From assembly GCA_035221665.1 (NCBI GenBank), contig CM069154.1:5828001-5892000 (forward strand): a stretch of 64,000 bases of DNA. Direction: 5' to 3'. Origin of the DNA: Okamejei kenojei (Eukaryota). Shown here in pieces: positions 5,701 to 54,184 of the stretch (its first letter is position 1; each line of letters begins with the position of its first letter). The notes under the pieces are model-generated. The model was not told the DNA's origin, made no database searches, and saw nothing but the letters and a program-made list of their open reading frames with translations. Both the position numbers and the translations under genes were made by a program.

Positions 5701-6396
5701 CATTCTCTTGCCTTCTCCGCGTGGCCTTTGACCCTTGTACTAATCAAGAACCTGTCAATCTCTGCTGGATATTCCTTGCTTTCGCCTGACATAATGGACT
5801 GAATAGGTGGAAAGGACACTTAATTTTTATTATTTCTTAGAAATAGTCATAAAAGGTGTCGGGGATTATGGGCAGAGAGTTGGAGAATGGGATTAAGAGG
5901 GAAAGATTGGGGATGTGAGGGGGGGGGGGAGGGGGGTAATCGGAGCACCCGGAGAAAACCCACGTAATCACAGGGAGAATGTGCAAACTCCACACAGAGA
6001 GCACCTGAGCTCAGGATCAATCCCAGGTTTCTGGCATGTGAGGCAACAGCTTTACCCTTGCAGAGATTGCTATTACACTCCGGATGTCAGGGGTTATGGG
6101 GAAAAGGCAGGAGAATGTGGTTAGGAGGGGGAGATTGATCAGCAACGATCGAATGGTGGAGTAGACTTGATGGGCCGAATGACCTAATTCTGCTCCTATC
6201 ACTAATGAACTTATTAACTTAATACCAGTAAGATGTTCCCTCATCTGTATTAAGGCAGGTCCTGACCTGAAACATGCCCTGTCCATCCCTTCCACAAATG
6301 CTGCCTGACCTGCTGAGTTACTCCAATGCGTTGTCAATGTTGAATTTAAAGATGCAGAAAGGGGTGAATAAAATAAATCTTACCTGTTTTCTTTGC

Positions 6397-6493
6397 CTAC
6401 ATTCTCGCGGTCACAATACCCCAGACAAGCAGAATGGCAAGGAATATCCAACGCATAATGTTCCATATGAAATTGTAGTTAGTATTATGTTTC
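6397..6493 (-). CDS. Receptor 1 transmembrane/terminal coding exon
   Basis: ctctttcctcttag acceptor. Encodes (W)KHNTNYNFIWNIMRWIFLAILLVWGIVTARM*. A donor cag|gtaag follows 13 nt after the stop (exon ends 6384). Confidence 0.8.
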
Positions 6494-9400
6494 CTAAGAG
6501 GAAAGAGGCAAAACAGTTTAATCAAAGGCGTTTATTAAGAGTGCAGGTGGATGTGCGTCCGATTATTTGTACTTAGTGTAGAAATAGAGATATCATGCGG
6601 AAACAGGCCCTTCGGCCCACTGATTCTGTGCCGACCAATGATCCCTGCATATTAACTATCCTACGCACACTAAGGACAATTTACATTTGCACCAAGCCAA
6701 TTTACCTACATACCTGTACCTCTTTGGAGTGTGGGAGGAAACCGAAGATCTCGGAGGAAACCCATGCAGTCATGGGAGAACGTACAAACTCCATACAGAC
6801 AGCACCCATAGTTAGGATTGAACCCAGGTTGTGTAAGGCAGCAACTCTACAGCTGCGCCACAGTGCCACCCGTGTTTGCTTGGGCAAGACTGTTGGGGAC
6901 ACAAAGTGCAGGAGTAACTCTGCAGTTCAGGGACCATCTCTGGAGTTTAGCGATAGGTAATATTTTGGGTCAGGACCCTTCTTCAGACTTCTGTAAATTG
7001 TCCACAGGGTATAGGATGGAACAAGAATGCAGGTGATCATATGTCGGCATGGACTTAGTGGGCCAAGGGACCTATCTTCACGTTGTATCACTAAACAAAA
7101 CTAAAGTGCAATCCAACAAGTTGATTCTCTGCCACATATTGTAGACTTTAACTTGTTCTATAATATTCCCCTGCTTTTACTTGTTCTATAATATTCTGAA
7201 ACGGTATAAAAATAATCCTTCATTCTCTACATTCTCCCCCAACTCTATAGACAAACATTGACCAGTGCAACCAGCAAGAAACAATGATAACCCCTTGTAC
7301 AGAAGTAATGTTTTATTCATCACTATAGCTATGTAGATATAGGGTAAGTGCTCAGTAGATATAACTTTATAAAGATTTAGCCTTTACCAGATATCCTTTG
7401 CCGTTGACGTATCTGTGATTGGAAAAAGTAAATGATGACTTGTTAAAATTGAGATCAATTATTGTTGGCTAGTAGTGCAGGTAAATGTCTATAACATGTT
7501 TAATCTAACTCATCAATTTGTTCACAAACAAAAAGTTAAAATTTAATGTGTAGGTAGGAACTGCAGATGTTGGTTTAATATGAAGATCAACACAAAGAGC
7601 TGGAGTAACCCAGCAGGTCAGGCAGCATCTCCGGAGAAAAGGAATAGATTACGTTTCGGGTCGACACCTTTTTCGAGACTGAGAGTCAGGGGAAAGGGAA
7701 ATGAGAGATGTAGGCGATGACATAGAGAGGTATGGAACAAATGAATGAAAGATATGTGAAACAGTAACGATGATCAAGGAAACAGGCTATTGATAGCTGT
7801 GAGCTAGGTGTAAATGAGTTATACAGACAGAAACTCTCCAGGAAGGCAGTGAAACTAGTACAATGACGAGGTTAAAATTTAAATTGGAGTCATAGAGCCA
7901 TGGAAGAGTCATACAGTGTAGAAATAGGCCCTTAGGCCCAACTTGCCCACAACATGTCCCAGCTACCCTAGTTCCAGCTGCCTGCGGTGGCCCATATCCC
8001 TCCAAACCTATTCTATCCATGTTCCTGTTGAACGGAAATTAAATTAAATGAAAGCTTAAATTAAAGGTTAAATTAAATTAAAATTAATGGTTAAATTAAA
8101 ATTAAGATGAAAATAGGTAAAAATTAATGTTCCAACAGAAAATATCTTAATTTCTTTCTAGAATAATAATTCTGTTAAAAGCTCTGGAAACTGCAAACTA
8201 TATAATAATCCACAATAATAAAACAGCAGACTATATAAGAGCATTAACATTTACAAAAGTATATTCAAGCCTTACTTTCAATGATATTAAGTTTCACACG
8301 ACTTCGCTGGTCAATTAAAACGCTCCTAATCGCACACCAATACCACCCTTCATCATTCAGTGTGAGATGTTCCATGGTGACTGAGAACTCCCTGACTTTG
8401 GTATTATCCGTAATGGATATTCTGCCATCAGACGTTGTCATGTTGTGGCCCATGGTTTGTACCAGAATAGTACAGCTCATCCAGTCACGGCCTTTGCACC
8501 AGTACTTTGGGAATTTGCTGAAATATCGAGCATATGTACAGGTGATATGGACTGATTGCCCCTCTGTTCCATTTACTGCACGTGGTCCACTTAGAGCAGC
8601 ATTTGTAACTGTTCAGTGTGAAAATATAAAACACATATTAAAACATAATATTTGTGACAGATTAATAACTGGAGAACTAAAGGACTTACAAACATATGCT
8701 CCATGTTTAGGTCCATTATTGTCAAGTGTACCACAGTACAGTGGAAAGCTTTGTTTTGCCTGCAATCCAAGCACTAAACGTTATTCCCTTTATCCTGTAT
8801 GTGTACACTGTGGATGACTTGATTGTAATCATGTAAAGTCTTTCGGCTGACTGGATAGCACGCAACAAAAAGCTTTTCACTATATCTCGGTACATGTGAC
8901 AATAATAAACTAAACTAAACTAAACTAACCATCAATGCAATCATCCTACTGAAGTACAATAGATAGAGCAAAGGGGAAGCTACAGAGTGCAGAATAGTTC
9001 TAATCATTGTGGTGCATCAGTTTCATAGACAAAGTACAATGTCTGCTATGGGATAGAGGTGATTAGGACAGTACCCAAGCTTACGGAAGTAGTGTTCTGC
9101 AGCTTGATTACAGAGGGAAAGATGTTCCTGAGTCTGGTGGAGCATTGTTTCAAGCTTATGTACGTTCTGCTGGATGGGAACAGGAAGAAGGAATGACTCG
9201 GATGAGACAAGTGTTTAATTCCGTTGGCTGCTTTTCCAATGTCCTCTATAAAGATTACTATCTAAATGGCATCAAGTTAGATTACTATCTAACTAGCGTC
9301 AAGTTGGGAAAAGGGGAAGTACAACAGGATCTGGGAGTCATTGTTCATCAGTCTATGAAAGTAAGCATGCAGGTACAACTTGCAGTGAAGAAAGCGAATG

Positions 9401-12675: not shown

Positions 12676-12790
12676 AGTTTTCCGTTTTTAAAGTAAATAT
12701 GATCCCAGTGGAACTTGTGATATTGTTCCTATTTTGTATCTTTGCACAGCTCTGATTGAGTTTCGAAATTACCATTCGTTATAGAAAGTA

Positions 12791-12798
12791 TATTTATA
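12791..12798 (-). promoter_or_regulatory. Candidate TATA box of receptor 1
   Basis: TATAAATA on the minus strand, about 115 bp upstream of the ATG. Confidence 0.55.
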
Positions 12799-12837
12799 GC
12801 AATGGCATGGGGCTGGTGACAGAATGAGTTATAGAAG

Positions 12838-12982
12838 CCTATGGGGTGGGAGATTGCAACCTTCACGTGGTCCGCCCAGTTTTAACTAATGCAATCAACC
12901 CGACATGCAAATTCAAATAAGATCAAATTGAGCAAGCTGTCCGACAACTTTAGGCTGTGCACGCCATACGCAAGAAGAAGAA
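12838..12982 (+). mobile_element. Short non-LTR 3'-end insertion with (aag)n tail
   Basis: Ends gcacgccatacgcaagaagaag and is flanked by an atagaag direct repeat (12831-12837/12983-12989). Family not assigned. Confidence 0.5.
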
Positions 12983-13289
12983 ATAGAAGATATAGAATAT
13001 AGAAGTCTTACTATTTTATTCTCAGCTCATTCTAGCATTGATGCAAGTTTCAGGATTGGATATTAAGCTGCGGCTGAGCAAAGATAAATCTTAAGGCCTG
13101 ATGTTTGGGATCTGGTGATTAAATTATTTCTGAATGCTAAGAACTATATTCTGCACTCTGTATCTTTACCTTCACTCTACCGATTATACTTGACTTTTGT
13201 CTTGATTGCATATGATCTAAGCAGAAGTCCAGAACAGATAAGAATTCAAAATCCGCAAAGCAGTGACATGCATTGAATCCCTCTACACG

Positions 13290-13680
13290 TCACACTGCCT
13301 CATCAAGGCCACCAGCATTATCAAGGGCGTGCCTCTCCCTCTTCTCCCCTCTCCCATCAGGTAAGAGGTGCAGACGTTTGAAAACGCACACAACCAGATT
13401 CACAGACAGTTTCTTCCCAGCTGTTATCTCCCAACTGAACCATCCTCTCAGTAACTAGGGATCTGTTCTGACCTTCCATCCACCTCATTGGAGACCTTTG
13501 GACTATCTTTAATTGGACTTTACTGGACTTTATCTTGTACTAAACGTTATTCCCTTGATGATACTGTGGACGGCTCAATTGTAATCATGTGTTGTCTTTC
13601 CACTGACTGGATAACATGCAAGAGAAATGCTTTTCACTGCACCTTGGTACACATGACAATAAACCAAACTAAACTAAACA
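13290..13680 (+). mobile_element. Rex1-like LINE 3' end
   Basis: SLFSPLPSGKRCRRLKTHTTRFTDSFFPAVI, then UTR and (taaac)n. Confidence 0.72.
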
Positions 13681-13804
13681 ATGTGACCCAAGATTGTGTT
13701 GTGGACATAAGTGAGAAGTTGAACGTTACACTTGGTCGGCTTGATTGTAATCATGTATAGTCTTATTGTCACATGCACCTTGGCACACGTAACAATAATA
13801 AAGT

Positions 13805-14125
13805 AAAGCACAGAGTCTCTTGCCAAGAGTAGGAGAATAGAGAACCAGAGGACATAGGTTTAACATGAAGGGAAAAGATTTAATAGGAATCTGAAGGGTC
13901 ACCTTTTCATGCAAAGGGTGGTGGGTGCATGGAACGAGCTGCCTGAGGAGGTAGTTGAGGCTGGGACTTTCGCAACGTTTAAGAAACAATAAGACAGGTA
14001 GATGGATAGGACGGGTTTAGAGGGTTCTGGGGTAAATGCAGGCAGGTGGGACTAGTGTATATGAGGCATGTTACTGTGGGCAAATTGGGCCGAAGGACCT
14101 GTTTTCACGCTGTATCACTCTATGA
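13805..14125 (+). mobile_element. CR1 3' fragment
   Basis: accagaggacataggttt...tggaacgagctgcctgaggag and CR1 3' UTR. Confidence 0.8.
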
Positions 14126-14936
14126 TGCTATGAAAATAAAGTATGAGTAAAGTAAAGTAAACTAATTCCTTGCTTGCACTATGATCAGGTTTTTTCCCAC
14201 AATATTGATGAGATCTGTAGGCATCTATTTCCACTTCAGTCACGTTGGTTATTTTACAAAAGGCTCCATGAGGAAGTGCCTGTTTCTGTTTTGCATTCAC
14301 TATTCAACCCAGTTTCGGTCACAAACTTCCAAATGAACTTTAATAATCCATTGGTTGCAAAATCTCCCCTAACCTCAGGCTGATGATGTGAGTGGGGCAG
14401 AAGTAATCTTGTTCATCAATCTTTTGAACAGTGGACCTCTTAATCCCTCCTGTCTAAATACCTCCCGATGTGGTGTGGGAACAAGATTTTATTTAAGAAT
14501 TCTCTTGTGCAGAGCTTTGAAATGTTCCACTGTGTTAAAGTTGCTTTATTATAAACTTTTATTTCAGACTCAAGGTTCAGACAAGAGACGACATTACATA
14601 TAATACATACCATATAAAAACATCATAAAATACATATAAAAGCATAGTAAATTACTTATAAGAGCATCATAAATTATATACAAAAACACAATACATGATT
14701 TAAAATCCAGAATAAAAAGAAAGATCAATGTCCTACAACGAGACAATGATACCAGTGGCTCCACTGTTGGGATTGGTAGCCTGTAGTGCTAAACCTTATG
14801 TTTGACAGGAACATGATAATAGTGAGATTAAATGAGAACTTACCAATTCGAAGTTTGATCTGTATTTTATGAGGAGTTACGATGAGGGATTACGTGAAGA
14901 CCCCGTCCAGCACGCATGCGCGACATTCTTCAAAGC

Positions 14937-15314
14937 GTGATGAATATTTTTTATTAGTTGTAAATACATATTAATAGAAAATACTTCTTACATACATTCA
15001 TAATATTATTAATATTAACATTTAAGACTTTATATTTCTATACATTTTTTTTTAATAAGTAAGAAAGGATAGAGAAAAATAATATAGAGGTAAAAAATCG
15101 AAAATAAGGAAGTGAATGGAGTATTAAAAAGTTATCCATCGTTGGAGATATATCCATGATTTATTATACGTAATTCTTCATCTATTCTATTATTCAGGCC
15201 TCAGTCAGGCTCTCACACCGAGCCACTTTGACCCTGTAGATATTCAATATATGGAGACCATATCCCTCTGAAAAGATCCAACCTGTCCATTAGGACGAGC
15301 CTCAATCTTTCCAG
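14937..15314 (-). mobile_element. L1-like 3' fragment inserted in the DIRS 3' terminal region
   Basis: LERLRLVLMDRLDLFRGIWSPYIEYL resembles an L1 ORF2 C-terminus, followed by an AT-rich UTR. aaagc is repeated at both junctions. Confidence 0.6.
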
Positions 15315-15430
15315 AAAGCAGCGGTGTGGATTCACAGAAAAAACACAACAATTGAAATAAATATAGTAAAGAAAAAATAAGAACTTAATTACCAGTTGAT
15401 CTGTATAATAGAGGGTGGGAGCGGAGGGCA

Positions 15431-15543
15431 CGTAATCCCTCATCGTAACTCCTCATAAAATACAGATCAAACTTCGAACTGGTAAGTTCTTATTTAATCT
15501 CACTATTTTATTTCGGAGTCACGTGAGTGACTACGTGAAGACT
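15431..15543. repeat. DIRS internal complementary region (ICR)
   Basis: 15431-15507 is the reverse complement of 14819-14897, and 15507-15543 is the reverse complement of ~20143-20182. Together they spell the circle junction. Confidence 0.9.
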
Positions 15544-15712
15544 TCAAAGCTCTGTGATTCCGAACCGTGTACCAGCTCCTGCTTCACTCACTGTCTGAAG
15601 ACCTTAGAGGGAGGAAGTATGTTATCACAATCAACAATAACCTGTTTGTGAACAAAAAAGGTTTATTAATGACAACAAAAAACAGAGAGCTCCCCCGGGC
15701 TTAAATTAAATA

Positions 15713-16685
15713 TTATCTGCACTCTAAAATTCTCTCTGCAAATGTAGCAGGTTCCGCCAGCGGCTTATTATAAAACCTTTGGAAAGTTCTTTCCGAGGAC
15801 CATCCTGCTCTGGCCAGAATATGGTCCATAGGCACGTCCATTCGCCTACCCGCCGACGTAGATGCAGCCCTGGTGGAGTGAGATTTGTAAACATTAGTAT
15901 TGACTCCCGCGGACCTAAGCACCTGCTTGAGCCACCTTGAAATGGTTTGGCTCATCACCTGACCATGAGGCTTCTTGTGGCTTATCCATAAGGCTTTTTC
16001 TCTCCCTCTTAAGTTGTATGTTGTGTCTATGTAATTTGCGAGATGGGTCTTGGCACACAGCCGTGGGTCAGATGAATATGCCCGGAACTCCATGACTGGA
16101 GGCGTGGTACCTGGTCTAGTTTGTTTGACCTGTCCCTGAATATGGAATGTGAAACAGTCCAATGACTCTGTCATGCTGTCCAGCCTCAGAAGGTGGACGG
16201 ACTGTACCCTTTGAGCTGACACTAGTGCCATGAGCATGACTGATTTCAGAGTAAGTTGTTCCAGCGTGAGTGACCTGGGTGGTGGCCATCCCCTATGGTA
16301 CGTCAGCACAATGCTGACATCCCAGATCTGAGTGTACCTTGGTCTGGGGGAATTAGTGTTAAAAATGCCCCTCATGATTTTGACCACTAGTGGATGGGAC
16401 CCCAAAGCCTGTTGTCCTGCTGCTGGAACCAAATAAGCTGACAACGCACTCCTGGCTGTATTGATGGGGCTGTAGCTGAGTCCTTCCCGATGTAATCCAA
16501 CCAGGAAACTCCACAATACTGGTGGCTGTAGCTGTTGATTAGGTAGTTCCTGTTTTGGAGCAATACCGTTCCCATTTTCTTATGTTGGTCAGGTATTGTC
16601 TCCTGGTGGACTCCCGGTGGGATGTGGTCATCATGTTGATGGCATCCTCAGACAGTCCCAGGCCCAGTAGAGGTCTTTTTAGAAT
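15713..16685 (-). pseudogene. DIRS tyrosine recombinase (core ORF 15713-16516 intact; N-terminus frameshifted)
   Basis: SAQRVQ, HSTRAASTS, AGW and TFQRFY supply the R-H-R-W-Y catalytic set. Confidence 0.9.
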
Positions 16686-18858
16686 CTGCAAGCCAGGAGA
16701 TTGACTCTGTCATTGCACGGGTGACTAATGCCTGACACTGGGTGGATTAATAATTCTGGACTGCTGGGGAATTCCAACGGTGTTTCGACAGCCATGTCGA
16801 GGGCCACTGGGAACCAAAGCTGTGTAGGCCAGTCGGGTATTATCAAGATTCCTGAAGCGGAATCCAATTGAATCTTGCGTAATACCCGACTGATGAGGCA
16901 GAAGGGAGGAAAAGCATAAAAGAACATTTTCCCCCAATGCAGTGTGAATGCATCAACTGCTGCTGCCTCAGGGTCTGGTTCCCAAGCGACATACGTTGGT
17001 ACCTGGTGATTCAGCCTGGATGCAAATAGATCGATATCTGGTGTGCCATATTGCTTTGTAATTTCAGCAAATACTTTGGGATTTAACATCCATTCGATGT
17101 TATCATTAAATCTGCGTGACCTGGTATCTGCCACTGTATTTTGCTTACCTGGTAGGTAAGTTGCTGATAACCAAATATGTCTTTCGACACACCATTGCCA
17201 GATTAGGTTGACCAAATTGTCACACGATATCGACTTTACACCACCCATGTGGTTGATATAAGCCACCACCGTGGTATTATCTAATTGCAACCGGACATGT
17301 GCATGATGTGTATTAGATGAATATGCTTTTAAACCATAAAACGCACCCAACATTTCTAAGTAGCTGATACCCCGTGTCTGTAGGCAAGATGATTCAGAAT
17401 TAGTCCATCTGCCCCCTGTGCTGGATTGCATGTTAGTTGCTCCCCAGCCCAAAGCACTGGCATCCGTTTGAATGGTTAATACTGGGTTGGTGATTATTAT
17501 GGGACTGGAACTGAGCCTAACGTTCCTTGTCCACCATTGTAACTCTAGAATGGATTCAGCAGTTAAATTCATAACTCGGTCAAAGTGACCTGAGTTTTGC
17601 TTTAGTGCGTGCACTTTTGCTCTTTGCAAATTTCGATAGTGCAAAGGCCCAAATTGTACAGCTGGAAAAGCTGCTACCATTTTACCAATAGCTCTAGCCA
17701 CCTGCCGTACGGTTGACTGATGTTTATCCATTAGTTCACTGCATGATAGTGCCAATTCTGATGCTTTCCCCTTCGGCAGAGTTGCAATCATGCGAACAGT
17801 ATCAATCGTAAATCCAAGATAGTCCATGGTAGTGGACAGTGTAAAATTGGATTTATCTGGATGTATGACAAACCCCAAAGTTTCAAACAAACGTTTGGTG
17901 GCTGCTACTGCCTAAATAGCTGTCTCCAAGGTTTTCCCTACTATTAAAATGTCGTCTAAGTACGCCATGACTATATGCTTTTGTTTCCTCAATAATGCCA
18001 AAGCAGGTTTTAAGATTTTAGTGAACAACCTTGGAGCGGAGGTTAGTCCATTTGGTAAGGCTTTAAATTGCCATAGCTGTTTCATCCAGATGAACTTTAA
18101 GTATTTACGATGCTCCTTGTGTATGGGTACTGAGTAGTAGGCATCTTTTAAATCAATGCTTGCTAGAAAGTAACCTCTAGAAATCAATAATCTGGCTGTT
18201 TCAAAGGTTTCCATCTTACCATATAACCATATAACAATTACAGCACGGAAACAGGCCCTCTTGGCCCTTCCAGTCCATGCCAATCATTTGTTTTCCCCTA
18301 GTCCCATCTACCTGCACTCAGACCATACCCCTCCATTCCCATCCTGAAATGTATATACTTAACAGACTCGTTTAAAGTAGTTAAGTCAATGATGATGCGA
18401 CATCCACCATCTTTTTTAGTTTTAGTGAAAATATTAGACACAAATTCCAAAGGTTCATGTTTTGTTCTTTCAATGACACCTTTTGCTAGTAGCCTCATCA
18501 GTTCAGCTTGACCCTCTTGTTTCTCTTTGACTGAGAGGGTGGATACCCTTTGGAGTATATGCTGAACTGGCAGAATGTTTTCATGAACAAAGTCAATTTT
18601 ATAGCCATGAATGCTGCTGAGTATATACTTGTCATTAGTGATGGATTCCCATGCATCCAAAAACAAGTGCAATCTTCCCCCTGTTAGTATAGAGCCCCTA
18701 CTGCTCATGTGCTGAGAGGAACCAGACCCACCTACCTCCATGGTTACTGGTGCTTCTTCTGCCTCTTCTATGGATGATGAGGTCTCTGTTGGGCTGTAGA
18801 GGGCTGCTGTTGATGTTGATGTTGATGTTGATGTTGTTGGGGGTGGCGCATTTTCCAT
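16679..18858 (-). pseudogene. DIRS pol (RT-RNase H-methyltransferase-like), broken by a CR1 insertion and a stop at 17912
   Basis: SIDLKDAYY, LPNGLTSAPR, YLDD (RT); TDAS..GWG, LDNTTVV, NTVAD (RNase H); IDLFAS, YAFPPF, PDWPTQLWF (MTase-like). Confidence 0.92.
18216..18338 (-). mobile_element. CR1 3'-UTR insertion in DIRS RT
   Basis: Matches the CR1 end at 61087-61200. ccatc is duplicated (18211-18215/18339-18343), and removing the insert restores HFRM-ETF. Confidence 0.88.
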
Positions 18859-19985
18859 GGGGTCCGCTCTGGGCCCTGGCCTAAAAAAGGCTTACGGGGA
18901 ATAGTTGCGGACCCCGAACTTTCACCAGTCGCATATGGTGGTCGACGACTGGTGGACGCCGAGGGGTACTGCCGCCTGGGTTTGTTCGGTCTGCTCGGTC
19001 CCAAACCTGCCCTCACAAGACCAAAGGTCTTGGATTCTTCCTCTAGGTCTTTCACCTTTTTCGGAAGGTCCTTTCCAAAGAGCAGAATTGGAGGTTCTGA
19101 ACCCGGTGTTTTGCAAAGTCCCGCAAATTTAGGGTTGAGGGCAGGCTTGATGATTTCCTTCCGTAAATTGTTTATCTCATATCGAGTGGTGCACAGCAGA
19201 GCTAATGTGTCTTGCTGATTTGTGGAGATGTCCACACCATCAATGGACCGAGCATATGATGTTATTCCTGCAGTCAGGAGTTTAAGGATTTTCTGGAGCT
19301 TCAACTCCAGGTTCCTGATGTTCTGCCCCAAATGTCCCCAAATTTGGCTGTTTACAGCTGGTACATTCAATGATGTACAATTTTCTGGGGCTGTATATTG
19401 TTCAAGAGCCTCATTGACCACCTGTTCTTGTAGGGGTTTTGCGGACAGGTGGTCAATGCTGGCTGCAAGTTTCGGCTCTAAAGGCCGACCCGCTCGTGGA
19501 ATGACCACGTAGCGGTTGACCACACCCAACAATTCTTCCTGATCCTGTACACCCTGCGTACTCTGGACTTCTTCAGCCAGCAACCCCTCTTCTTGACCAG
19601 CCCAGACCTGGTTGCCAATGCTGCCTTCAAAAGAAGGTGAAGCAATGGTCAGTGCCGTATTAGGCACTGCGGGAGTGCCTGAGCTCCCTTGGCGAGTCTG
19701 CTGCTGCTCTCTCAGCAGATCTCGCTGGAGCAATTGCTCCATAAGCCGTTCCATTCAGCTTAGGCGGCTGCCTGTGTCGCTCTCGAGCGGTGAGGCATCT
19801 TCATCCGAATTGTCGGATACTACCGCCAGGTTCTGGCTGCAGGTACCTCCAGCCCGCTGCTCTGGCTGCACTAGCAGTGCTGGGCTCGGCTCGGTAGTTA
19901 TTCCTGCCGCCTCTTGCCCCCCCCTCCAAAGAACGTTCCCCAACGGAAGACGAACGGGGGCGAGCTGCACTCTGGTCTTGCTCAT
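18768..19985 (-). pseudogene. DIRS gag-like ORF1 with one in-frame stop at 19755-19757
   Basis: ORFs 19755-19985 and 18768-19754 are contiguous and in frame. YTAPENCTSLNVPAVNSQIW, LRKEIIKPALN and LLFG are DIRS gag-like motifs. Confidence 0.8.
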
Positions 19986-20228
19986 TCTCCTGGAACATAA
20001 AGCAGACCACAGAGAAAATACACACGGGCACGGTAAAACTTACCTGTCGGCCCGACTTTTCAATTTGTAGCGGGAGCGCCTTGAACTCCCGTTCTTCGCG
20101 GGTGCACTGCATGAACGCTAATGTCGCGCATGCGTGCTGGACGGGGTCTTCACGTAGTCACTTACGTGATTCTGAAATAAAATTGCATTTTCAGTCATTT
20201 ATCCTGCAAATGAATTTATACATATTTC

Positions 20229-21439
20229 GAAACATAGAAACATAGAAATTAGGTGCAGGAGTAGGCCATTCAGCCCTTCGAGCCTGCACCGCCATTCAAT
20301 ATGATCATGGCTGATCATCCAACTCAGTATCCCGTACCTGCCTTCTCTCCATACCCTCTGATCCCCTTAGCCACAAGGGCCACATCCAACTCACTCTTAA
20401 ATATAGCCAATGAACTGGCCTCAACTACCCTCTGTGGCAGAGAGTTCCAGAGACTCACCACTCTCTGTGTGAAGAAAGTCTTTCTCATCTCGGTCTTAAA
20501 GGATTTCCCCCTTATCCTTAAGCTGTGACCCTTGTCCTGGACTTCCCCAACATCGGGAACAATCTTCCTGCATCTAGCCTGTCCAACCCTTAAGAATTTT
20601 GTAAGTTTCTATAAGATCCCCTCTTAATCTCCTAAATTCCAGAGAGTATAAACGAGTCTATCCAGTCTTTCTTCATAAGACAGTCCTGACATCCCAGGAA
20701 TCAGTCTGGTGAACCTTCTCTGCACTCCCTCTATGGCAATAATGTCCTTCCTCAGATTTGGAGACCAAAACTGCACGCAATACTCCAGGTGTGGTCTCAC
20801 CAAGACCCTGTACAACTGAAGTAGAACCTCCCTGCTCCTGTACTCAAATCCTTTTGCTATGAAAGCTAACATACCATTCGCTTTTTTCACTGCCTGCTGC
20901 ACCTGCATGCCTACTTTCAATGACTGGTGTACCATGACACCCAGGTCTCGCTGCATCTCCCCTTTTCCTAATCGGCCACCATTTAAATAATAGTCTGCTT
21001 TCCTGTTTTTGCCACCAAAGTGGATAACCTCACATTTATCCACATTATACTGCATCTGCCAAACATTTGCCCACTCACCCAGCCTATCCAAGTCACCTTG
21101 CAGTCTCCTAGCATCCTCCTCACAGCGAACACTGCCCCCCAGCTTAGTGTCATCCGCAAACTTGGAGATATTGCCTTCAATTCCCTCATCCAGATCATTA
21201 ATATATATTGTAAATAGCTGGGGTCCCAGCACTGAGCCCTGCGGTACCCCACTAGTTACTGCCTGCCATTGTGAAAAGGACCCGTTTACTCCTACTCTTT
21301 GCTTCCTGTTTGCCAGCCAGTTCTCTATCCACATCAATACTGAACCCCTAATACCGTATGCTTTAAGTTTGTATACTAATCTCTTATGTGGGACCTTGTC
21401 GAAAGCCTTCTGGAAGTCCAGATATACCACATCCACATC
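20229..21439 (-). mobile_element. Young CR1 LINE, 5'-truncated
   Basis: 270-aa open RT ([23 protein letters not shown]) and a (tatgtttc)n tail. 16-bp TSD with one mismatch at 20213-20228/21440-21455. Confidence 0.95.
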
Positions 21440-22059
21440 AATTCATACATATTTCTTAGGATAGACTCCTGCAGCCACAAACATTTCACTGGCACTACAC
21501 CATCTAGGTTTCCTTAGCAGTGTTCTCATGGCATCATTATAAGCCACCTTTAGTTTCTGTAAACTTGTCTTTCCGTAGTATGACCACAGGTGTGCAGTAT
21601 AGAGTGGTGTCCAATATGTTCTAATCAGAGGCATCTTTACCACTTCTGTACACGCACCAAACATAAGTAAGATAATATTTGCCTGTACATACAGCATACG
21701 TCGTTGCCTATAAATATCCTCATCATAGTCATTTATAAGTAAAATATCATCTTAACACCTCAACCATGACTCAAATGGTATTTTTTAATGGTGTTAAGGT
21801 TGGTAACAATTGATCATTGTTAAGGTTAACACCATTGATGAGCAGAGGGTTCTTTCGGTCCATATCCATGACTCTCTGGAAGTGGTAACACAAGTAGATA
21901 GAGTGGTAAAAAAAGGATTAAAGGAAATAATAGGAAAGGTTTTGTAAATGTTATCCAGGATATCGCATTTTGTTCAAATAATTCAATGTTATCTGACCTA
22001 GAAACTATCACCTGGGAATAGAACTACTTAGGGACATAGTCATGGCCTCACGGCACAGA

Positions 22060-22416
22060 AACAAGCCCTTCAGTTATAGTTTAGAGACACAGCATGGAAA
22101 CAGGCCCTTCAGTTATAGTTTAGAGACACAGCATGGAAACAGGCCCTTCGGCCCACCGAGTCCGTGCCCACTAGCGGTAATCCCGTACACTAGCACTGTC
22201 GTAAATACTAGGGACAATTTACAATATTTATCTAAGCCAATTAACCTACAAACCTGTACATCTTTGTAGTGCGGGTGGAACTCTGAGCACCCGGAGAAAC
22301 CCACATAGGTCACAGGGAGAACATACAAACTCTGTACTGACAGCACCCTTAGTCAGGATCGAACCTGGGTCTCTGATGCTGTAAAGCAGCCACTGTACCG
22401 CTGTGCCATCGTGTCG
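22060..22416 (-). mobile_element. HE1-type SINE with tandemly duplicated tail
   Basis: Full SINE plus a 40-bp duplication of ...ttagagacacagcatggaaacaggcccttc. Confidence 0.85.
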
Positions 22417-23056
22417 CCCTGGCTGTTCCCTGATGCCGGGGCTGTCCTTCACACCATAGTCTTTAGGCTCCACTATCTATTATTTTCCCTCTGAAAGCAG
22501 CCACAAATTCACTGGCTTGAAAAGAAAGGAAACTGTCCGACAATTAGAATTTGTGAAATGTTATAATCTCAGTGCAAATGCTGCTGATTACTGCAAATCT
22601 AGTATCTTCCTCCCTCTCCTGGTGTAGTGAAGAGATGTCAGCTGGAACAGCTCCATAATCTCATTGTTCATGGGGACTGCCGACATGGGAATCCCAGTAC
22701 ATGTCCAACTAAGTGCTGTTGGTGGAGTGATGACGGAATATATACCAGTCATTTATTGACTCATTCACAACTTGTGGCAGAGCCAAATGTCTGTTTTGAA
22801 TTGCACTTGACATTAATAGTTTGTTCAGCTTTTTCACATCAATAATGTCATTGATTTGTTTGTGCCTATGATTTAGTTTTTACTGAAGGATGTTAGTGAA
22901 AGATAGATTTACATGACAACTTTGTGGCTTAATTGTTACTATGAGTGATATGGGCATTTTAAAAACAATATTCATGTTTTTCATTTGAAAATAGACTTGA
23001 TTTTGCAATAATTCCAGCTTTTAGAAATATTGATCTTGGATAGATCTTGGATTTTG

Positions 23057-23428
23057 GGCGACACGGTGGCACAGCGGTAGAGTTGCTGCCTCACAGCGCC
23101 AGAGACTCGGGTTCGATACTGACTACGGATGCTGCCTGTAAAGAGTTTGTACGTTCTCCCCGTGACCTATGTGGGTTTTTCCGGGTGCTCAGGGTTCCTA
23201 CCACACTCCAAAGACGTACAGGTTTATCGGTTTGTAGATTTTCTCCGAGATCTTCGGCTTCCTCTTACACTTCAAGACGTACAGGTTTATAGGTTAATTG
23301 GCTTGGTATATATGTAAATTGTCCCTAGTGTGTGTAGGATAGTGTTAATGTGCGGGGGTCACTGGTCGGCGTAGACTCTGTGGGCCGAAGGGCCTGTTTC
23401 TGCTATATCTCTAAACTAAACTAAACTA
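23057..23428 (+). mobile_element. HE1-type SINE, full length, with internal duplication
   Basis: cacggtggcacagcggtagag...gggttcgatact head, core and tail. Confidence 0.88.
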
Positions 23429-23679
23429 GTCAGCATTAATAGTACTGGGCAGGAAATCGATTCATTAAGGGAAATCACAGCACTTAGTTTAGAGGAAATC
23501 ATATTAAAAAATTTGATAGTTTCTGGTAAAATTACAGATAAAGTTGTTGAAGGTAATGAAGTTAATGTATAAATGAGCTTCCAGATGGTTTTAATAACAG
23601 GATAAATGACAGATATCAGGAATAAAAGTAAAGTTGAACATTATGAAGAACATAAAAGGTGCATTTATGGATAGGAACA

Positions 23680-24362: not shown

Positions 24363-24744
24363 AAGATGGTTAAGCGTCTTACGACAGAGGAAAGACACTG
24401 AAAACTGGGGTAACAGTGGGTCAGACAGCATCTCTGGAGAAAAGGAATAGGTGATGTTTTAGGTCGAGACCCTTCATCCGACAGTCAGGGTAAAGGGGAC
24501 CCAGACTCACTAGAACAGAGGAATATGGGTGATTGGCCGTTTATTGAGCGGGAGGAAGGTAAATAGTGAGATTGGTGTTGGCTTTTTAAAAATCGATATG
24601 TGACCTAGACTTGGACTTGCAAGCCACAAGTTTGAAATGAGCTGATGATGCAAAACGAAATAGCATTGTGAACTGCAATCCAGGATGTTATTGAGTTTTG
24701 GGAGTACATAGACTTGCTGGTGGAATGGACAGACATATGGCAGA

Positions 24745-27277: not shown

Positions 27278-27305
27278 AACGTTTCGGGCCAAAACCCTTC
27301 TTCAG
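27278..27305 (-). ncRNA. Minimal hammerhead ribozyme motif (Penelope-derived)
   Basis: CUGAAGA-A-GGGU(UUUG)GCCC-GAAA-CG-UU; catalytic core intact, with a U.G wobble in stem II. Confidence 0.55.
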
Positions 27306-35235: not shown

Positions 35236-36310
35236 CACTGACCACGCTCTCGTTTCACTCCTGCCATTGGGAAGAAGATACAGGAGCCTGAAAACTGTGA
35301 CCTCCAGGTTCAAGAACAGCTTCTCAGCAGCAACAATTAGGCTTTTGAACACTGCACACTTACCTCAATTATCAAGTATGGACTGTCTTTAGTTGCACTA
35401 AAGACATCAGTTATTTTTTGTCCTTATTGGATTTATTAACTATTTCATTTTTGTACATTATACGTTAACTGTGTGCATTGTCTTTACAAGCACAATGAGG
35501 GGAATAGATAGGGTATGTGTTGGAAGGAACTGTAGATGCTCGTTCAAGCCGAAGATAGACACAAAAACCTAGAGTTACTCATCCGGTCAGGCAGCATCTC
35601 TGGAGTAAAGGAATAGGTGATGTTATGAGTCGAGACCTTTCTTCAGACAGATTTAGGGGAAAGGGAAACAAGGGTAACAAGGGAAACAAGTCTCTTATCT
35701 AGAGTAGGGGAATCAAGACTCAGGGGACAAGGCTTCAGGTGAAAGCGAAAAGATTTAATAGGATCCTGAGGGGCATCATTTTTTTACACAGTGAGTTGTG
35801 GGTGTTTGGAATGAGCTAACTGATGAGATAGTTGAGGCAGGTGATACAAATATATATTTAAAGGCATTTGGACAGTTACATGAGTAGGACTGGTTTAGGA
35901 GGAGATGGACCAAACGCTGGCAGGAGGAACTAGAGGAGATGGGGCATCTTGGTCGACATGGACAAGTTGGGCTGAAGGGTCTGTTTCCGTGCTGTATAAC
36001 TCCATAAATCTCCAGATTCGTTGTGCTACTGAAACAAAGCGTTATATTGCCACCGTCGGTACATATGACAATCATGCACTTTTGAAGCTTGCATTTAACA
36101 AAACAAAATCGACCAAATGTCCTCGACATGGATTCAGTTCCAGTGCGTAAAATAAATGTTATTAGAAGAATATACCTTGCACTATATTTGTTTTGAGTAC
36201 TGTTGATATCAATCTTGTAATTGGAGATAGTGTGGTTGTCATTGGTTCTGTTATAAAAATATATGTTATCGTTAATGTTAATTGTTAATTCCTAATGTCA
36301 CTATATGTCA

Positions 36311-36932
36311 TAGAAACATAGAAACATAGAAATTAGGTGCAGGAGTAGGCCATTCAGCCCTTCGAGCCTGCACCGCCATTCAATATGATCATGGCTGATC
36401 ATCCAACTCAGTATCCCGTACCTGCCTTCTCTCCATACCCTCTGATCCCCTTAGCCACAAGGGCCACATCCAACTCACTCTTAAATATAGCCAATGAACT
36501 GGCCTCAACTACCCTCTGTGGCAGAGAGTTCCAGAGACTCACCACTCTCTGTGTGAAAAAAGTCTTTCTCATCTCGGTCTTAAAGGATTTCCCCTTATCC
36601 TTAACCTGTGACCCCTTGTCCTGGACTTCCCCAACATCGGAACAATCTTCCTGCATCTAGCCTGTCCAACCCCTTAAGAATTTTGTAAGTTTCTATAAGA
36701 TCCCCTCTCAATCTCCTAAATTCCAGAGAGTATAAACCAAGTCTATCCAGTCTTTCTTCATAAGACAGTCCTGACATCCCAGGAATCAGTCTGGTGAACC
36801 TTCTCTGCACTCCCTCTATGGCAATAATGTCCTTCCTCAGATTTGGAGACCAAAACTGTACGCAATACTCCAGGTGTGGTCTCACCAAGACCCTGTACAA
36901 CTGAAGTAGAACCTCCCTGCTCCTGTACTCAA
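36311..36932 (-). mobile_element. Young CR1 copy, near identical to 20229-20850
   Basis: Same 3' sequence as the 20229 copy; atgtca TSD at 36305-36310/36933-36938. Confidence 0.93.
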
Positions 36933-37204
36933 ATGTCACATTGCACTTGCGGGCGGAGCACCAAGGCAAATTCCTTGTATGTGAATACTTGGTCAATAAA
37001 CCTATTCATTCATAAACCTATTCATTCATTCATCATTCCTTCATATGTTTATTCAAGTTCTGTTGAGGCAAGGAAATAAAATTAAATCTCAGCTGTTTTC
37101 ACATGCAGTGAATAAAGAGATTGTCAGATGGAACCCATTGCTCTGAGTAAAGTGTCAATTAGCTTGAGAGATATGGTGACTATTGTTCAGTGGAATTGGA
37201 CGTC

Positions 37205-37513
37205 TTAGTTGAGTTTAGTTTAGTTTAGAGATACAGCATGGAAACAGGACCTTTGGCCCACCTAGTTCACGCCAACCAGCGATCTCCTCCGCACACCAGT
37301 ACTATCCTGCACACACTAGGGTCAATTTACAATTTTACCGAAGCCAATTAACCTACAAACCTGCACGTCTTTGGTGTGTGGGAAGAAACCAAAGATCTCA
37401 GAGAAAACCCACTTGGTCATGGGGAGAACATAAAAACTCTGTACAGACAGCATCCGTAGTCAGGATCAAACCCGCGTCTCTGGCGCTGAAATGAAGGCAG
37501 CAACTCCACTGCT
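37205..37513 (-). mobile_element. HE1-type SINE
   Basis: Matches the consensus tail and core. Confidence 0.83.
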
Positions 37514-38992
37514 GTACACACGTACACCCTATGTATCATTTATATTTTTGTGTGTCCACGTGGATGCGCCTGTGATGTTGCCACAAGCATGATTTTCATT
37601 GTACCTGCACCTCACCATACGTGCATATAAGAATAAGCCAGACTTGACTTGAAAACTGCTCAGCAAAGTATATTACAATGATGTTCTCATGAGAAAAAGT
37701 ATTTCCAGAACAATTGATCTGATGGGATGTCATAGCTTATAGTTTCCCTCTTCTAAATATTCTTCACAGTTAAAACCATGAGGCATTTCCAGGACTGAAT
37801 ACAATTTATTTCTCATGACTGCAATGTCATGCTACACAGCACAAAATAATAAGTCATTGCTATAAAGGCTAGCAACATTGTTTTGATGGCTCCTTTACTG
37901 AATGAATAGTGAGTAAACTAAGTTAATTGTTTTAGCAGAAGAAACATTAATTCTGTGCAGTCTATTATCAAAGCAAAATAAAAAACACTTTGTCAACGCC
38001 CTTTATGGGCGACTATTTGCATACCTTCGGTTAGTAAGCTAAGAATTTCACTGTGACTTGTCACATGTGACAATAAAGTATTCATTCATTCATTCATTCA
38101 TTCAAAATAATAATGATCATTTGGTCTCGTTGTAGAGTTGTTTCTCAGTCACTATCACCAGTGAATCTTCATTCTGCCTTCTACGGCAAGCTGTGAGGTT
38201 TCGGTTCATTGGGTCCCTGAAAAAAAAAATATCGAAGTCATCAGATTCATTAACTCGGGGAATTGTGCTTTATTTCACAAGGCCACTCACAACAGAATTC
38301 TGCTTCCAATTGGCACAGTGATGCAGCTGATAGAGCTGCTGCCTCACAGCGTCCAAGAATTTGCTTAGATTTTGACATTGGTGCTATCTGTGTGGAGTTT
38401 GCATGTTCTCGCTGTGGCCATGTGACGTTCCACCGCGAGCTTCGCTTTCCTCCCACCTCTCAAAGACTTGGGGTTTACAGGTTAATTGGCCAGCATGAAT
38501 TTCTCCGAGTGTGTTGGGATTTGGGATGAGAGAATGAGATAACATAGAACTAATGCATACGGGTGATCAATGGCCTGATAGACACAAAGTGCTGGAGTAA
38601 CCCAGCGAATCAGGCAAGATCTTTGGGGAAAAAGGATGGATGATATTTCAGTCAGGACCCTTCTTCAAACTGAAAGTAGAGGGGAGTGAACTGGGGTTCA
38701 GATAAGATGGCCTGCATGGTCGCAGTAGGCCAAAGGACCTGTTTCCATGCTGTATTTCTCTCTGCTTCAATGACTGTACAACATCTACGTCAAGCACTTC
38801 AGTTCATTCTGCACACAAACATCTTGTCAAGACCTATTGATATCTTCTTCGTAGAGCATAGGTGTGGCCTGTATTTGTGAAATACTTTATCTAAACACTT
38901 TCCGTTTGTTTTATTTTATCAGCATGTTTGAAAGTATTAATGGACATCATTTGGAAGCATTCAGCAATTCTGATGGTCTCCGCAAAACATAC

Positions 38993-44945: not shown

Positions 44946-45724
44946 CTACAGAGAGAGTGCGGTAGTGTTGGAGGTATTGTTGCTCAGTAAGTCTACTCAC
45001 CACCCAGGTATCTCCATCTAATTCACTTGAACCTTGTTTATCTCTTGTCTTTCACCCCAACCACACACTGGCCTCTTGTCTCAAATCTCCCACCTCCTCA
45101 TCTTCCTCCCATCATCCCTCACCCTCTCCAGATGCACCTGCCACCTACCTGCCCCTGTCTCAGCCCCCCCCCCCCCCTCCCTCTCCCCTCTTTATACTTC
45201 ATCTTGCACACTCACCAAAATGTGTGACCACTAATTGTCTGCCTGCAATGGCCCAGAAAGACATTGAGTTCAAGACTATAAATCATGGCTTTGACAATCA
45301 ATGACATTGGCAGAAGTTCCATTTGACAAAGGGGACAGAAGGGTTACCGTGGACTACAGCAAGATTAGGCTAGAACGGTAAAAGAGTCAAGAGTCAAGAG
45401 AGTTTTATTGTCACATGTCCCTGATAGGACAATGAAATTCTTGCTTGCTGTAGCACAACAGAATATGTAAACATATTACAGAACAGGAGATAAACGTTAA
45501 GTTTGTTTATATACCATAGACCATATATATGATATATGAAAAATGATTACTAATGTTGAGAATGCTGTCGAAGCTGTAAAGTTACTCATTTAATTTCTCC
45601 ATCCATGATCTGGAGCCATTTTATGTTTCATAATATATTAAATAATCGGTGGAGTATAATTTGGAGAGAACCTATGTGGAGACAAAGTTATTCCACAACA
45701 GCTTTTAATAAGAAGTATGAAACT

Positions 45725-47019
45725 TTTTTTTTTTTTTTTAAATTTATTTATTAGAAGTACATTACATTTTAATGGTACCTTTTTACAGATTCCTAGAGTT
45801 ATTAAAACATTCTTTGTACAACTTCCTTTTTTTTTAGAAAGAAATGAGAAAGAAAGTAGTGAAGAGTAAAGAATAGTCTAGTGAGTGTGGTGTAAAGAAA
45901 GAAATGTGAGAAAGTGAAGCAGAAAGGAAATTCTCCCACGCCACAAGTCGATTTTTTTTTTATATTCTTAATCATTTTTCAGTCAAACCCAGAATTTTTA
46001 ATTTTATGATGATATTACACCGCATGAGTCCACAAGGTCAATAAATGGAGCCCAATTCGTTAAGAATTGGTCTTTTTTTTTTCTATTAGGAGGAGTCTCA
46101 TTTCTTCCAAATGGGCCGTTTCCAACATATTACCAATCCACATTTTGAGTGTTGGTATAGTAGCCTTTTTCCAGAATTTGAGTATGAGTTTTTTCGCTAT
46201 TATTAAACCATAATTAAAAAATGAGATTTGGGATATATTTAATTTATTTCCATCTCCTAATACTCCAAAGATAATAATTTCCATGGTAGGTTCCATTTTT
46301 ATCTTAAATAAACTAGTGAATATATCAAATATATCACACCAAAATCTTTGAAGTTTTGTGCAAGAAACGAAAGAATGTGTAAAATTGGCATTTTGAGAAA
46401 AGCATTTATCACAAATGGGTGAGATATTTGAATAATACTTATTCAACCTAATTTTTGAATAATATAATCTGTGTAATATTTTAAATTGAATTAAATTATG
46501 TTAATCAAACATTTATGTATATATATCAAATACCTCTCCCATGTTTCTTTAGAAATGTTTATCATTAAATCTTTTCCCAATCTTCTCTAATTGCCTCTGT
46601 TGATTGCAATTCTCTATTAAGACTACTGTTATATAAATATAATATTAATTTTTGTGAGTCCGTCATTGCTTCTTCCAGTGGGTCTATCGTTATATTCTGT
46701 AATCTTGGTATATATTTTTTTATAAAGTCACATATCTGTAAATATTTAAAGTATTGGTTATTATTCAGATTAAATTTTGATTTTAATTGTGATAAATGAT
46801 AATAAATTTCCCATTTCATACATGTCACCCAACTTTTTAATTCCCAGTCTTTCCCATTGTCTATATGTTTTATCCATAATAGATGGTTTAAATACCGGAT
46901 TATTCACTATTGGTGTTAATGAAGATAAGTTTCTTAATTTTAAATTTAATTTTATTTGTTTCCAAATTCAAATTATATTGTGTATGATTGGATTCTTCTT
47001 ATATAATATATTATTCAAT
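45725..47019 (-). mobile_element. L1/Tx1-clade LINE 3' fragment with poly(A), flanked by a 157-bp direct repeat
   Basis: ORF2 C-terminal CDKC..HSFVSC knuckle and AKKLILKFWK, with a T-run at 45724-45739. Direct repeats at 45568-45724 and 47020-47176. Confidence 0.85.
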
Positions 47020-47289
47020 TCGAAGCTGTCAAGTTACTCATTTAATTTCTTCATCCATGATCTGGAGCCATTTTATGTTTCATAATATATTAAATAATTG
47101 GTGGAGTATAATTTGGAGAGAACCTATGTGGAGACAAAGTTATTCCACAACATCTTTTAATAAGAAGTATGAAACTGTTAAAGTGTTTACAAAATGGAAT
47201 GGGTGCAACTACACTTTGAAGCTATTACTTAGATGAACTTCTTTAAAATAAACTCCCATTTTGCTTATTTCACAATCAATCATAGTCTC

Positions 47290-52036: not shown

Positions 52037-52412
52037 CAGCACGGTGGCGCAGAGGTGGAGTTGCTGCCTTACAACACCTACAGCGCCAGAGACCCAGGTC
52101 TGAAGAAGGGTTTTGGCCCAAAACATCGCTCCATAGATACTGCTGCACCCACTGAGTTTCTCCAGCACTTTTGGCTACCTTTGATCCCGACTATGGGTGC
52201 TGTCTGTATGGAGTATATACATTCTCCCCTTGACCACGTGGGTTTGCTTCGAGATATCTGGTTTACTCCTTTCCGCAACGACATACAGGTGCCGGATAAA
52301 TGGCTTGGTAAAATTGTAAATTGTGCCCAGTGTGTGTGGGGTAGTGTTCATTGCTGGTGGTGCAGACTCGGTGGGCCAAAGGGCCTGTTTCCACTGTATC
52401 TCTAAACTAAAC
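52037..52412 (+). mobile_element. HE1-type SINE interrupted by a Penelope end (~52100-52180)
   Basis: SINE head, then ctgaagaagggttttggccc...cagcacttttggctacc, after which the SINE resumes. Confidence 0.78.
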
Positions 52413-53887
52413 ATGAGTTTTGTTTATAAAACTTGCCGTTTATGAAACTGTTCAGCATTTCTGCTTTCTTCACCTGCTGTCTTATATGTTGCAATTCCCA
52501 CATCCTTGTACTTCCAACTGCATCCCACAATGACTCTCCATATCCTCATCATAGCTCACCCTGTCATGTAGCTCATAACCCAGGGCTTTTGGAGTGGTTT
52601 GAATATGGATCTCAATAGGCACTATTTTTTTAATTTGTTGAACATATTGTTTTGTTTATTTGTTATTTTATCCATTGAGCACTTGCTGGCTTAACCTAGC
52701 ACTAAATTCTATTCCCTTATCATGTATCTATAACACTGTAATGTCTCAATTGTAAGCATGTATTGTCTTTCTGCTGACTGGTTAGCACACAACAAAAGCT
52801 TTTCACTGTACCTCAGTACACGTGACAATAAACTAAACTGAAACTGACTCTGAAACTGTGTTTACAAACCTGTTGCGCTGCTGCAAATAAGAATGTCATT
52901 GTTCTATTTCGGGACATATGACAATAAAACGCCCTTGACTCGAGAGTCAAACATTATCACAAGTGAAGAGAAAAAAAAGCTTTATCGTGTCTTATTAATC
53001 TCAGTAATCAACATGGCTTTTCCTGGAAGCAGAAACATTCTCTGCGCAAGTACACATTCATCATCTTCAATATAAAATATTTGCCATCTCCAACTTTTGT
53101 TTCCTTTTTTTCTGTGTCTCCTGCGATGCAGGAGGTGCCTCGTAGATCGATACACTCACTCGTTCTGCAGTCAAGTGTTCAGGTGGGTTACTTGCTCAGG
53201 TGCTGTGATGAGATTTGAACCCACAACCTTGAGTTGTAGAGAGAAGATGTTTGCACTGTAACATAACTCCTCCCAGTCTATGTTGGGGATGGGTGTGAGG
53301 AAGGAGACTGCATCGTTCAATGCATTGCGCAAAATGGCTGCTATTTGCATAGCTGACCCAGATTCAGCAATTTAATGGCAATTGCTGATCATTGGGAACA
53401 AGGAAGGGATTGGAAAAACGAGGAACTGCAGAAGCTGGTTTGCAAAAAAAAGAGGCAAAGTTCTGGAATAACTTAGCGGGTCAGGCAGCATCTCTGGAGA
53501 GAAGGAATGGGTGACGTTTCAGGTGGAGACCCTTCTTCAAAGTAAGTAGATTTGTCGATTACAGCAGAGAAAGCTCAGTGCAACCATGGCGCAAAGATGG
53601 GACAACAAACAACATTGGTCCAGGTAGGGGGCTGACGAGAACATAGTGGACCTGGCGTGGGGTGGGTGTGTGTTAACAAAGGGGGACATGGCATTGGGAG
53701 GGGGGAGCGTAAGAACAAAGGGGGACCTATAGGGACTGTAATGAATACTTTGTAACTGTTGGCGCCCTATACATGGTGACTCTTTGTATACCTTGTTTAT
53801 GGTATGCAAAACAAAAGAATTATCACTCTGACATGTCACATGTGGTAATAAAGTACCAATCAATCAATCAATGACTCAATGGTTTAT

Positions 53888-54166
53888 CTAGGAAGTCACA
53901 GTGGCATAAATACCCTGCACGGTGTTCTGTGGATTGTGAGGAGAATGAGCTTTCTGACGGGCAATTTGGCTGACGCTTTGGGATGTAACATCTGAATAGG
54001 TGACATTATCCTCCCCAGTACTGGAGTGAGTCCCTGTGGATTTGCTTTGAAATTCCACTCCTGCATACACAGTTTGATATTGATTAGAACAATGGGCAGC
54101 TTCCTTGTTGCCTTGAATGTCTGACAGTGTTGCATAAACGATGCTCCCTTTTCCTGTTGGCAATTC
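53888..54166 (-). CDS. Terminal cytoplasmic exon of an inhibitory immune receptor (ITIM/ITSM); upstream exons outside the window
   Basis: cttttgtatttcag acceptor, phase 0, 92 aa to TAG. Contains IVYATL, TVYAGV, VTYSDV and GIYATV. Confidence 0.85.
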   Translation of the reverse strand, partial: ELPTGKGSIVYATLSDIQGNKEAAHCSNQYQTVYAGVEFQSKSTGTHSSTGEDNVTYSDVTSQSVSQIARQKAHSPHNPQNTVQGIYATVTS

Positions 54167-54184
54167 CTGAAATACAAAAGATAG

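Follow-up and report, generated by a model that had tools for sequence, protein, structure and literature searches.

A probable MDIR (CD300/pIgR-like) receptor cluster with an intact tail-less gene in the skate Okamejei kenojei

The 64,000-nucleotide stretch of Okamejei kenojei DNA analysed here (assembly GCA_035221665.1, contig CM069154.1, positions 5,828,001 to 5,892,000; hereafter the window, numbered from its first base) is very probably part of a two-layer cluster of skate MDIR genes, that is, of CD300/pIgR-like receptors, with an intact MDIR1-type activating gene (locus 1), the end of an inhibitory gene (locus 3) and a dead activating twin (locus 2). The MDIRs are described as a skate family of activating and inhibitory members that resembles CD300, TREM and pIgR (PMC3031540). 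An initial annotation of the window, made without database searches, had proposed three minus-strand loci forming a cartilaginous-fish cluster of this type, in which short-tailed members with an Arg in the transmembrane (TM) segment accompany members bearing immunoreceptor tyrosine-based inhibitory motifs (ITIMs), and this general picture holds: all three loci are present within the limits it gave (Table 1).

Locus 1 consists of four exons (12675-6384, minus strand), every junction of which is AG/GT. With the V exon ending in phase 1 and the TM exon starting in phase 2, an additional exon is needed between them; a 25-nucleotide (nt) microexon restores the frame. Two other solutions were rejected, direct V-to-TM splicing being out of frame and an acceptor at 7438/7437 breaking the frame. 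The TM exon contains the stop codon (6399-6397), with a donor 13 nt further on, and the computed splice product is a protein of 164 residues with a signal peptide, one V domain, a stalk, a TM Arg and no tail, terminating four residues past the hydrophobic stretch; the initial annotation had likewise described an intact receptor with a TM Arg and no signalling tail. The product aligns without gaps to Raja eglanteria (clearnose skate) ABC86795.1, with 143 of 164 residues identical, and the same count is obtained with the Amblyraja RefSeq protein XP_032898780.1. Because the match to both skate proteins is gap-free, all three junctions are independently supported, and locus 1 is, on this alignment, an intact orthologue of ABC86795.1. 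The orthology covers signal peptide, Ig domain, stalk and TM segment, and the protein has the features of the tail-less charged-TM form of the MDIRs, namely an Arg in the TM helix and no cytoplasmic motif. ABC86795.1 (UniRef A0S0E7), whose accession number falls just before ABC86796.1, is probably MDIR1 and probably the cDNA-derived form with a positively charged TM residue; the MDIR1 type was reportedly defined by Cannon and colleagues (Cannon et al.) in 2006 by a positively charged TM residue without a cytoplasmic motif. ABC86796.1 itself is listed as MDIR2 (PMC3031540). The MDIR2 and MDIR3 records were not among the named matches of the homologue searches made for the loci, which included no dedicated comparison with them. 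Judged by its domains, locus 1 is not a true pIgR, which combines a multi-V secretory-component ectodomain with polymeric Ig transport, since it encodes one V domain and no tail.

The truncated design of locus 1 is widely conserved. Full-length orthologues were examined from eight sharks, three skates and five other rays; all 16 retain a WxxxRW motif in the TM segment and end 16-17 residues after RW, and the W, R and W do not vary among the 15 that were aligned. (The orthologue set was clustered at 90%, so recent duplicates could be hidden; left out of the count were a longer isoform from Narcine, which continues for 42 residues past RW, a Cetorhinus isoform without a TM segment and a partial Chiloscyllium protein.) Because every orthologue ends at the same place, the absence of a tail is a matter of design and not of a nonsense mutation. 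With orthologues lacking a tail in 16 elasmobranch species, the gene at locus 1 is old and stable, not the product of birth and death that the initial annotation had supposed. In a tree of V domains (70 rows, 110 columns; 19 of 66 inner branches open, non-elasmobranch rows unresolved), its V domain falls into a skate clade (support 99/99) that also contains ABC86795.1; this clade is nested in a larger one of 18 rows (100/99), made up of Arg-TM genes and ITIM-bearing sister genes. The sister gene, called ‘CMRF35-like molecule 1’ in sharks and rays, is identical to the locus 1 V domain at 51-53 of 110 positions and has a neutral TM segment; its TM and tail have no match in the window.

The V domain itself points to the CD300/pIgR/TREM group, combining a V-set fold with a canonical Cys pair and an additional Cx6-7C pair, a Cys motif described in bioRxiv 10.1101/2022.04.21.489081. 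All four Cys are invariant in the 19 aligned relatives (19/19); the extra pair has the form Cx7C at locus 1, Cx6C at locus 2. The top PDB sequence matches of the locus 1 V domain are pIgR and CD300; a search with this domain alone against longer proteins gave one match among 39 candidates, a bird PIGR, and was uninformative. The AlphaFold model of the clearnose-skate orthologue (mean predicted local distance difference test score, pLDDT, 69.7) has a V domain and a single C-terminal helix, and the ten best hits of a fold search with this model are CD300f/CD300lf, followed by NKp44, CD300a, pIgR and TREM.

At the other end of the window, the locus 3 exon carries the four tyrosine motifs noticed in the initial annotation, which we classify as two ITIMs (IVYATL and VTYSDV), one immunoreceptor tyrosine-based switch motif (ITSM; TVYAGV) and one non-canonical motif (GIYATV); it is the only one of the 234 stop-free stretches of at least 70 residues in the window with three or more such motifs. 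Its place in the family, previously argued from position only, can now be based on homology: the exon is 84% identical over its whole length to the Rhinoraja pIgR-like protein XP_078277136.1 (E 3.6e-37) and 40% identical to the tail of Narcine XP_069798680.1, and a search among longer proteins returned two matches from 38 candidates, both isoforms of the Rhinoraja ‘pIgR-like’ protein. The Rhinoraja model runs from V through stalk, neutral TM and a short cytoplasmic exon to a tail of the locus 3 type; in both the Rhinoraja and the Narcine models such a tail goes together with a neutral TM and a V domain of the pIgR-like kind, and motifs of this sort also occur in the terminal tail of a Hemitrygon model that has one TM segment. 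These comparisons identify locus 3 as the terminal exon of an inhibitory receptor of the pIgR-like kind, the V and TM exons of which would lie beyond the window, and the receptor would be predicted to recruit SHP-1/SHP-2 via its ITIM and ITSM motifs, for which CD300A is given as a precedent (PMC12447643). A Pfam match of the tail to ‘Orthopox_35kD’ (E 0.015, below the cut-off) was dismissed as chance.

Some observations weigh against this assignment. For Rhinoraja and Narcine, the records are computed models in which adjacent genes are fused, with two TM segments each, and the link from tail to V domain therefore rests on predictions; moreover, neither V and TM exons nor a cytoplasmic exon for locus 3 were found in 54167-64000, which is mostly long terminal repeat (LTR) element. 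It is thus conceivable, if unlikely, that locus 3 is also dead or orphaned, its upstream exons having been lost or cut off by the retroelements at 55-64 kb so that no working inhibitory receptor is left. In the 9.8 kb upstream of the exon, none of the cytoplasmic, TM and V exons of the Rhinoraja gene (84% identical) was found, 55469-61819 is filled by an LTR element whose 564-nt repeats are 96% identical, and locus 2 and an isolated exon at 26.5 kb show that decay is common here. Against this, the exon has kept an intact acceptor, an open frame of 92 codons and the same stop as the Rhinoraja copy, with more Tyr motifs than that copy has, and in this cluster introns commonly span several kb.

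If expressed and engaged by a ligand, locus 1 would act as a single-V type I membrane protein that activates leukocytes by docking an ITAM (immunoreceptor tyrosine-based activation motif) adaptor through its membrane Arg, most likely, by analogy, an adaptor of the FcR-gamma/CD3-zeta type. An NxxR motif at the N-terminal end of the TM segment is described as a mark of FcR-gamma-associating receptors, and surface expression of Xenopus XFL as FcR-gamma-dependent (PMC2413239). Three points speak against this coupling: NxxR is not fixed, most of the 16 orthologues having Ser at the N position; a 2014 screen of shark genomes turned up neither an FcR-gamma chain nor pIgR homologues (PMC4016189); and the charged TM residue of human CD300C is given as Glu, not Arg (PMC12447643). 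The pIgR half of the 2014 negative is contradicted by RefSeq pIgR-like names; beyond PMC4016189, nothing usable on FcR-gamma in sharks was found in the literature listings searched. The FcR-gamma half of the negative would also suit the idea that locus 1 is a non-signalling decoy, scavenger or adhesion molecule and its Arg merely an interface residue of a short anchor, as would the position of the Arg within an aromatic belt, where it is residue six of the best-scoring hydrophobic window of 19 residues (mean hydropathy 1.98). This idea is improbable, more so than a dead locus 3, given that the W, R and W are invariant among the aligned orthologues, that the ITIM-bearing sister genes have no Arg at that column, and that in the other subfamily the same Arg motif occurs only on members without an ITIM tail. 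An activating role for locus 1 remains the preferred reading. The WxxxRW TM is also found on a third elasmobranch V subfamily (Leucoraja P0057, Mobula P0095, Carcharodon P0147) and on a sturgeon pIgR-like protein (Acipenser P0076), and is therefore either older than the split between sharks and bony fish or has been spread by exon exchange.

Locus 2 is a pseudogene because it combines a stop, a TGA at 43445-43443 in place of the B-strand Cys, with a frameshift near 43375 and a lost TM acceptor. The initial annotation had described a decayed paralogue of locus 1 with the same TM motif; the decay and the WxxxRW are borne out, but a close relationship to locus 1 is not. WxxxRW occurs six times in the six frames of the window, and the two copies at TM exons match the TM segments of relatives (tblastn E 2e-10 and 1e-9), yet apart from the shared motif the TM segments of the two loci agree at only 5 of 25 positions in ungapped alignment, and their V domains at 40 of 105. 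The locus 2 V domain is instead identical at 67 of 105 positions to the V preceding the TM segment of the ITIM gene in Rhinoraja, to which it is sister in the tree (95/93), whereas the locus 1 V domain shares 38 of 104 residues with that same Rhinoraja V; the locus 2 TM matches the Arg-TM of Narcine XP_069798680.1 at 19 of 30 and that of Hemitrygon XP_072886327.1 at 18 of 30 positions. On these identities, locus 2 belongs to the V subfamily of the ITIM gene rather than standing close to locus 1. That it could be a recent decayed duplicate of locus 1, with locus 1 as the activating partner of locus 3, is suggested by the shared WxxxRW, the phase 2 start of both TM exons and the co-orientation, but is highly improbable and largely refuted by the V identities just given, by the placement of the two loci in different clades and by the ITIM-bearing sister that locus 1 has for itself in relatives. 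A candidate stalk exon of locus 2 (40628-40530) is the top window match to the Rhinoraja stalk, but its score of 39 is not above that of shuffles (mean 39), and a candidate tail exon at 38216-38159 is unsupported, with an ungapped score of 2 against the Hemitrygon tail.

Loci 2 and 3 are, by the same comparisons, likely a pair. Narcine XP_069798680.1 contains two ectodomains that are identical at 231 of 233 positions, the first before an Arg TM as in locus 2 and the second before a neutral TM and an ITIM tail as in locus 3, and thus shows the near-identical ectodomains and opposite signalling modules of paired receptors; for our window, where the V domain of locus 3 would lie beyond the end, the comparison extends to the locus 2 V and its Rhinoraja counterpart (67 of 105). 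With the same V subfamily and an Arg TM, locus 2 would be the dead activating-type twin of the inhibitory locus 3 gene, whose V domain in this genome would be expected to resemble that of locus 2. Repeated loss of an activating twin has a described precedent in primate CD300C (PMC12447643). Several of the elasmobranch ‘pIgR-like’ RefSeq models (P0004/P0005, P0106, P0095, P0147, P0020, P0022) have two TM segments and appear to fuse activating and inhibitory neighbours, so that the cluster is mis-annotated in public sets. The suggestion in the initial annotation that members may be unannotated has to be revised to this extent, as the relatives have RefSeq models, several of them fusing neighbours, and one orthologue is a named MDIR record.

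More tentatively, two kinds of pair may stand side by side here: a fast-turnover family that makes and loses activating twins (loci 2 and 3), and an ancient, fixed pair formed by the tail-less Arg-TM receptor, which sharks, rays and skates have all retained, and its conserved ITIM sister. If so, the ancient pair would point to a ligand that is itself conserved, either self or a lipid as in the case of CD300, and coupling through Arg of the FcR-gamma type would date back to the jawed-vertebrate common ancestor, the Arg-TM exon having been put to use in two V subfamilies. No paper stating this was found in the open-licence literature searched. The family and the orthologue of the intact gene are already on record, and little is added in the way of discovery; what the analysis does is to sort out pair membership where automatic models fuse genes, and to single out the tail-less receptor, being deeply conserved, as the most suitable tool for finding out which ITAM adaptor is used in cartilaginous fish.

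A further trace of the inhibitory layer is an orphan cytoplasmic exon, where the Hemitrygon and Narcine exons find their best match in the window (scores equalled by 0 and 1 of 100 shuffles) and whose phases would link a neutral TM exon to a last exon of the locus 3 type. A decayed ITIM exon was not found near it in 12700-26465, nor a neutral TM exon in 26513-38150, where the best scores were equalled by 5-85 of 100 shuffles. The orphan exon either remains from a fourth gene, of the inhibitory type, or was left behind by an inhibitory ancestor of locus 2. No further V exon was found in 12700-38900 or 54167-64000, and no C2 exon was detected in the window.

The stalk of locus 1 preserves a small change of its own. 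In skates it is nine residues shorter than in Mobula, Hemitrygon and Hypanus, and the 27 bases directly upstream of the microexon read in frame as the missing residues. An in-frame 8-mer there scores 27 against the ray stalk, a value reached by 0 of 5737 other locus 1 intronic 8-mers (maximum 19), and the ancestral acceptor position reads AA. We infer that skates lost the old stalk acceptor and now use an AG 27 nt inside the exon, shortening the stalk by 27 nt; it would be a clean small example of exon shortening by acceptor shift, with readable coding sequence left in the intron.

Table 1. Exons and exon candidates of the receptor loci, with the former stalk sequence of locus 1 (window positions)
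Feature	Positions	Strand	Remarks
Locus 1 signal-peptide exon, coding part	12675-12636	-	40 nt, phase-1 donor; 12/13 residues identical to ABC86795.1 and Amblyraja XP_032898780.1
Locus 1 V-set exon	8608-8276	-	Pfam V-set E 2e-17; B-F cysteines, Cx7C pair; 84-86% to skate orthologues
Locus 1 former coding stretch of stalk exon	7439-7413	-	probably now intronic polypyrimidine tract
Locus 1 stalk microexon, 25 nt	7412-7388	-	phase 1 to 2; required for frame
Locus 1 TM exon	6493-6384	-	WNIMRW (NxxR), hydrophobic helix; 87-90% to skate orthologues
Orphan cytoplasmic exon, 47 nt	26512-26466	-	AG/GT intact, phase 1 to 0; homologous to short cytoplasmic exon of inhibitory members
Locus 2 signal-peptide exon	48222-48186	-	best window match to Rhinoraja signal peptide, score 47; 0/100 shuffles as high
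Locus 2 V exon	43510-43191	-	stop at B-strand Cys, frameshift
Locus 2 candidate Ser/Thr-rich stalk exon	40628-40530	-	AG acceptor; 3' end uncertain; weak
Locus 2 TM exon (WKVGRW)	39083-38993	-	expected acceptor TG instead of AG
Locus 3 terminal exon	54166-53888	-	92 codons, open frame; intact acceptor

The ten exon candidates total 1381 bases, or 2.2% of the window; the nearest proteins are from skates (84-87% identity). The remaining DNA is mostly retroelements: 41% of the window matches itself elsewhere within the window, and 8 of the 10 window open reading frames (ORFs) tested with Pfam contain reverse transcriptase, endonuclease, integrase or tyrosine-recombinase domains. No flanking gene was recognised in the window. 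A long DIRS-like retroelement (14818-20183, minus strand), with reverse transcriptase at 17912-18283, tyrosine recombinase at 15713-16579 and terminal sequences that recur internally in inverted form, lies ~2.1 kb upstream of the locus 1 start codon, and a related fragment is present at ~62400-64000. The Gypsy-like LTR element at 55469-61819, located in the intron preceding the locus 3 ITIM exon, contains a zinc knuckle and an integrase ORF, and a long interspersed nuclear element (LINE) sequence is nested in it at ~59400-61200. A GC-rich tandem array at 29924-30530 (36-nt unit, ~17 copies, 108-nt higher-order unit) stands directly ahead of a LINE endonuclease/reverse transcriptase at 31038-33561. 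A 160-nt direct duplication, 97% identical (45568-45727 and 47020-47179), surrounds an AT-rich LINE-like fragment and is unusually long for a target-site duplication.

Among known systems, one likeness is to the NxxR-TM receptors that bind FcR-gamma (LILRA2, PIR-A, NKp46, GPVI, OSCAR, FcalphaR and Xenopus XFL), which share the Arg near the N-terminal end of the TM segment and, with locus 1, the NxxR motif (PMC2413239); these are described as FcR-like or KIR-like families rather than CD300-like V receptors, and the Asn of NxxR is not conserved in most locus 1 orthologues and is absent from locus 2. Mammalian CD300a/c, CD300f and pIgR have in common with the skate loci a single V domain with the extra Cx6-7C pair, a stalk, and the opposition of a charged TM with a short tail to an ITIM tail, and primate CD300C parallels locus 2 in the loss of an activating twin; the identity is, however, ~32-36% in fold alignments, the TM residue is Arg here versus Glu, and there is no sign of the five-domain transport design of pIgR. 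A further comparison is with the elasmobranch pIgR-like RefSeq proteins (Rhinoraja XP_078277135.1/136.1, Narcine XP_069798680.1, Hemitrygon XP_072886327.1 and XP_072886821.1), with the same GALWA-type V domain, the Arg TM of locus 2 and the four-Tyr terminal exon of locus 3, many of which differ in carrying extra V-C2 modules; locus 2, moreover, is broken here. Clearnose-skate ABC86795.1 is a protein of another skate species that differs from locus 1 by 21 substitutions and is alike in design, with the same length of 164 residues, 143 identities, the microexon-length stalk, the WNIMRW TM segment and the same end point.

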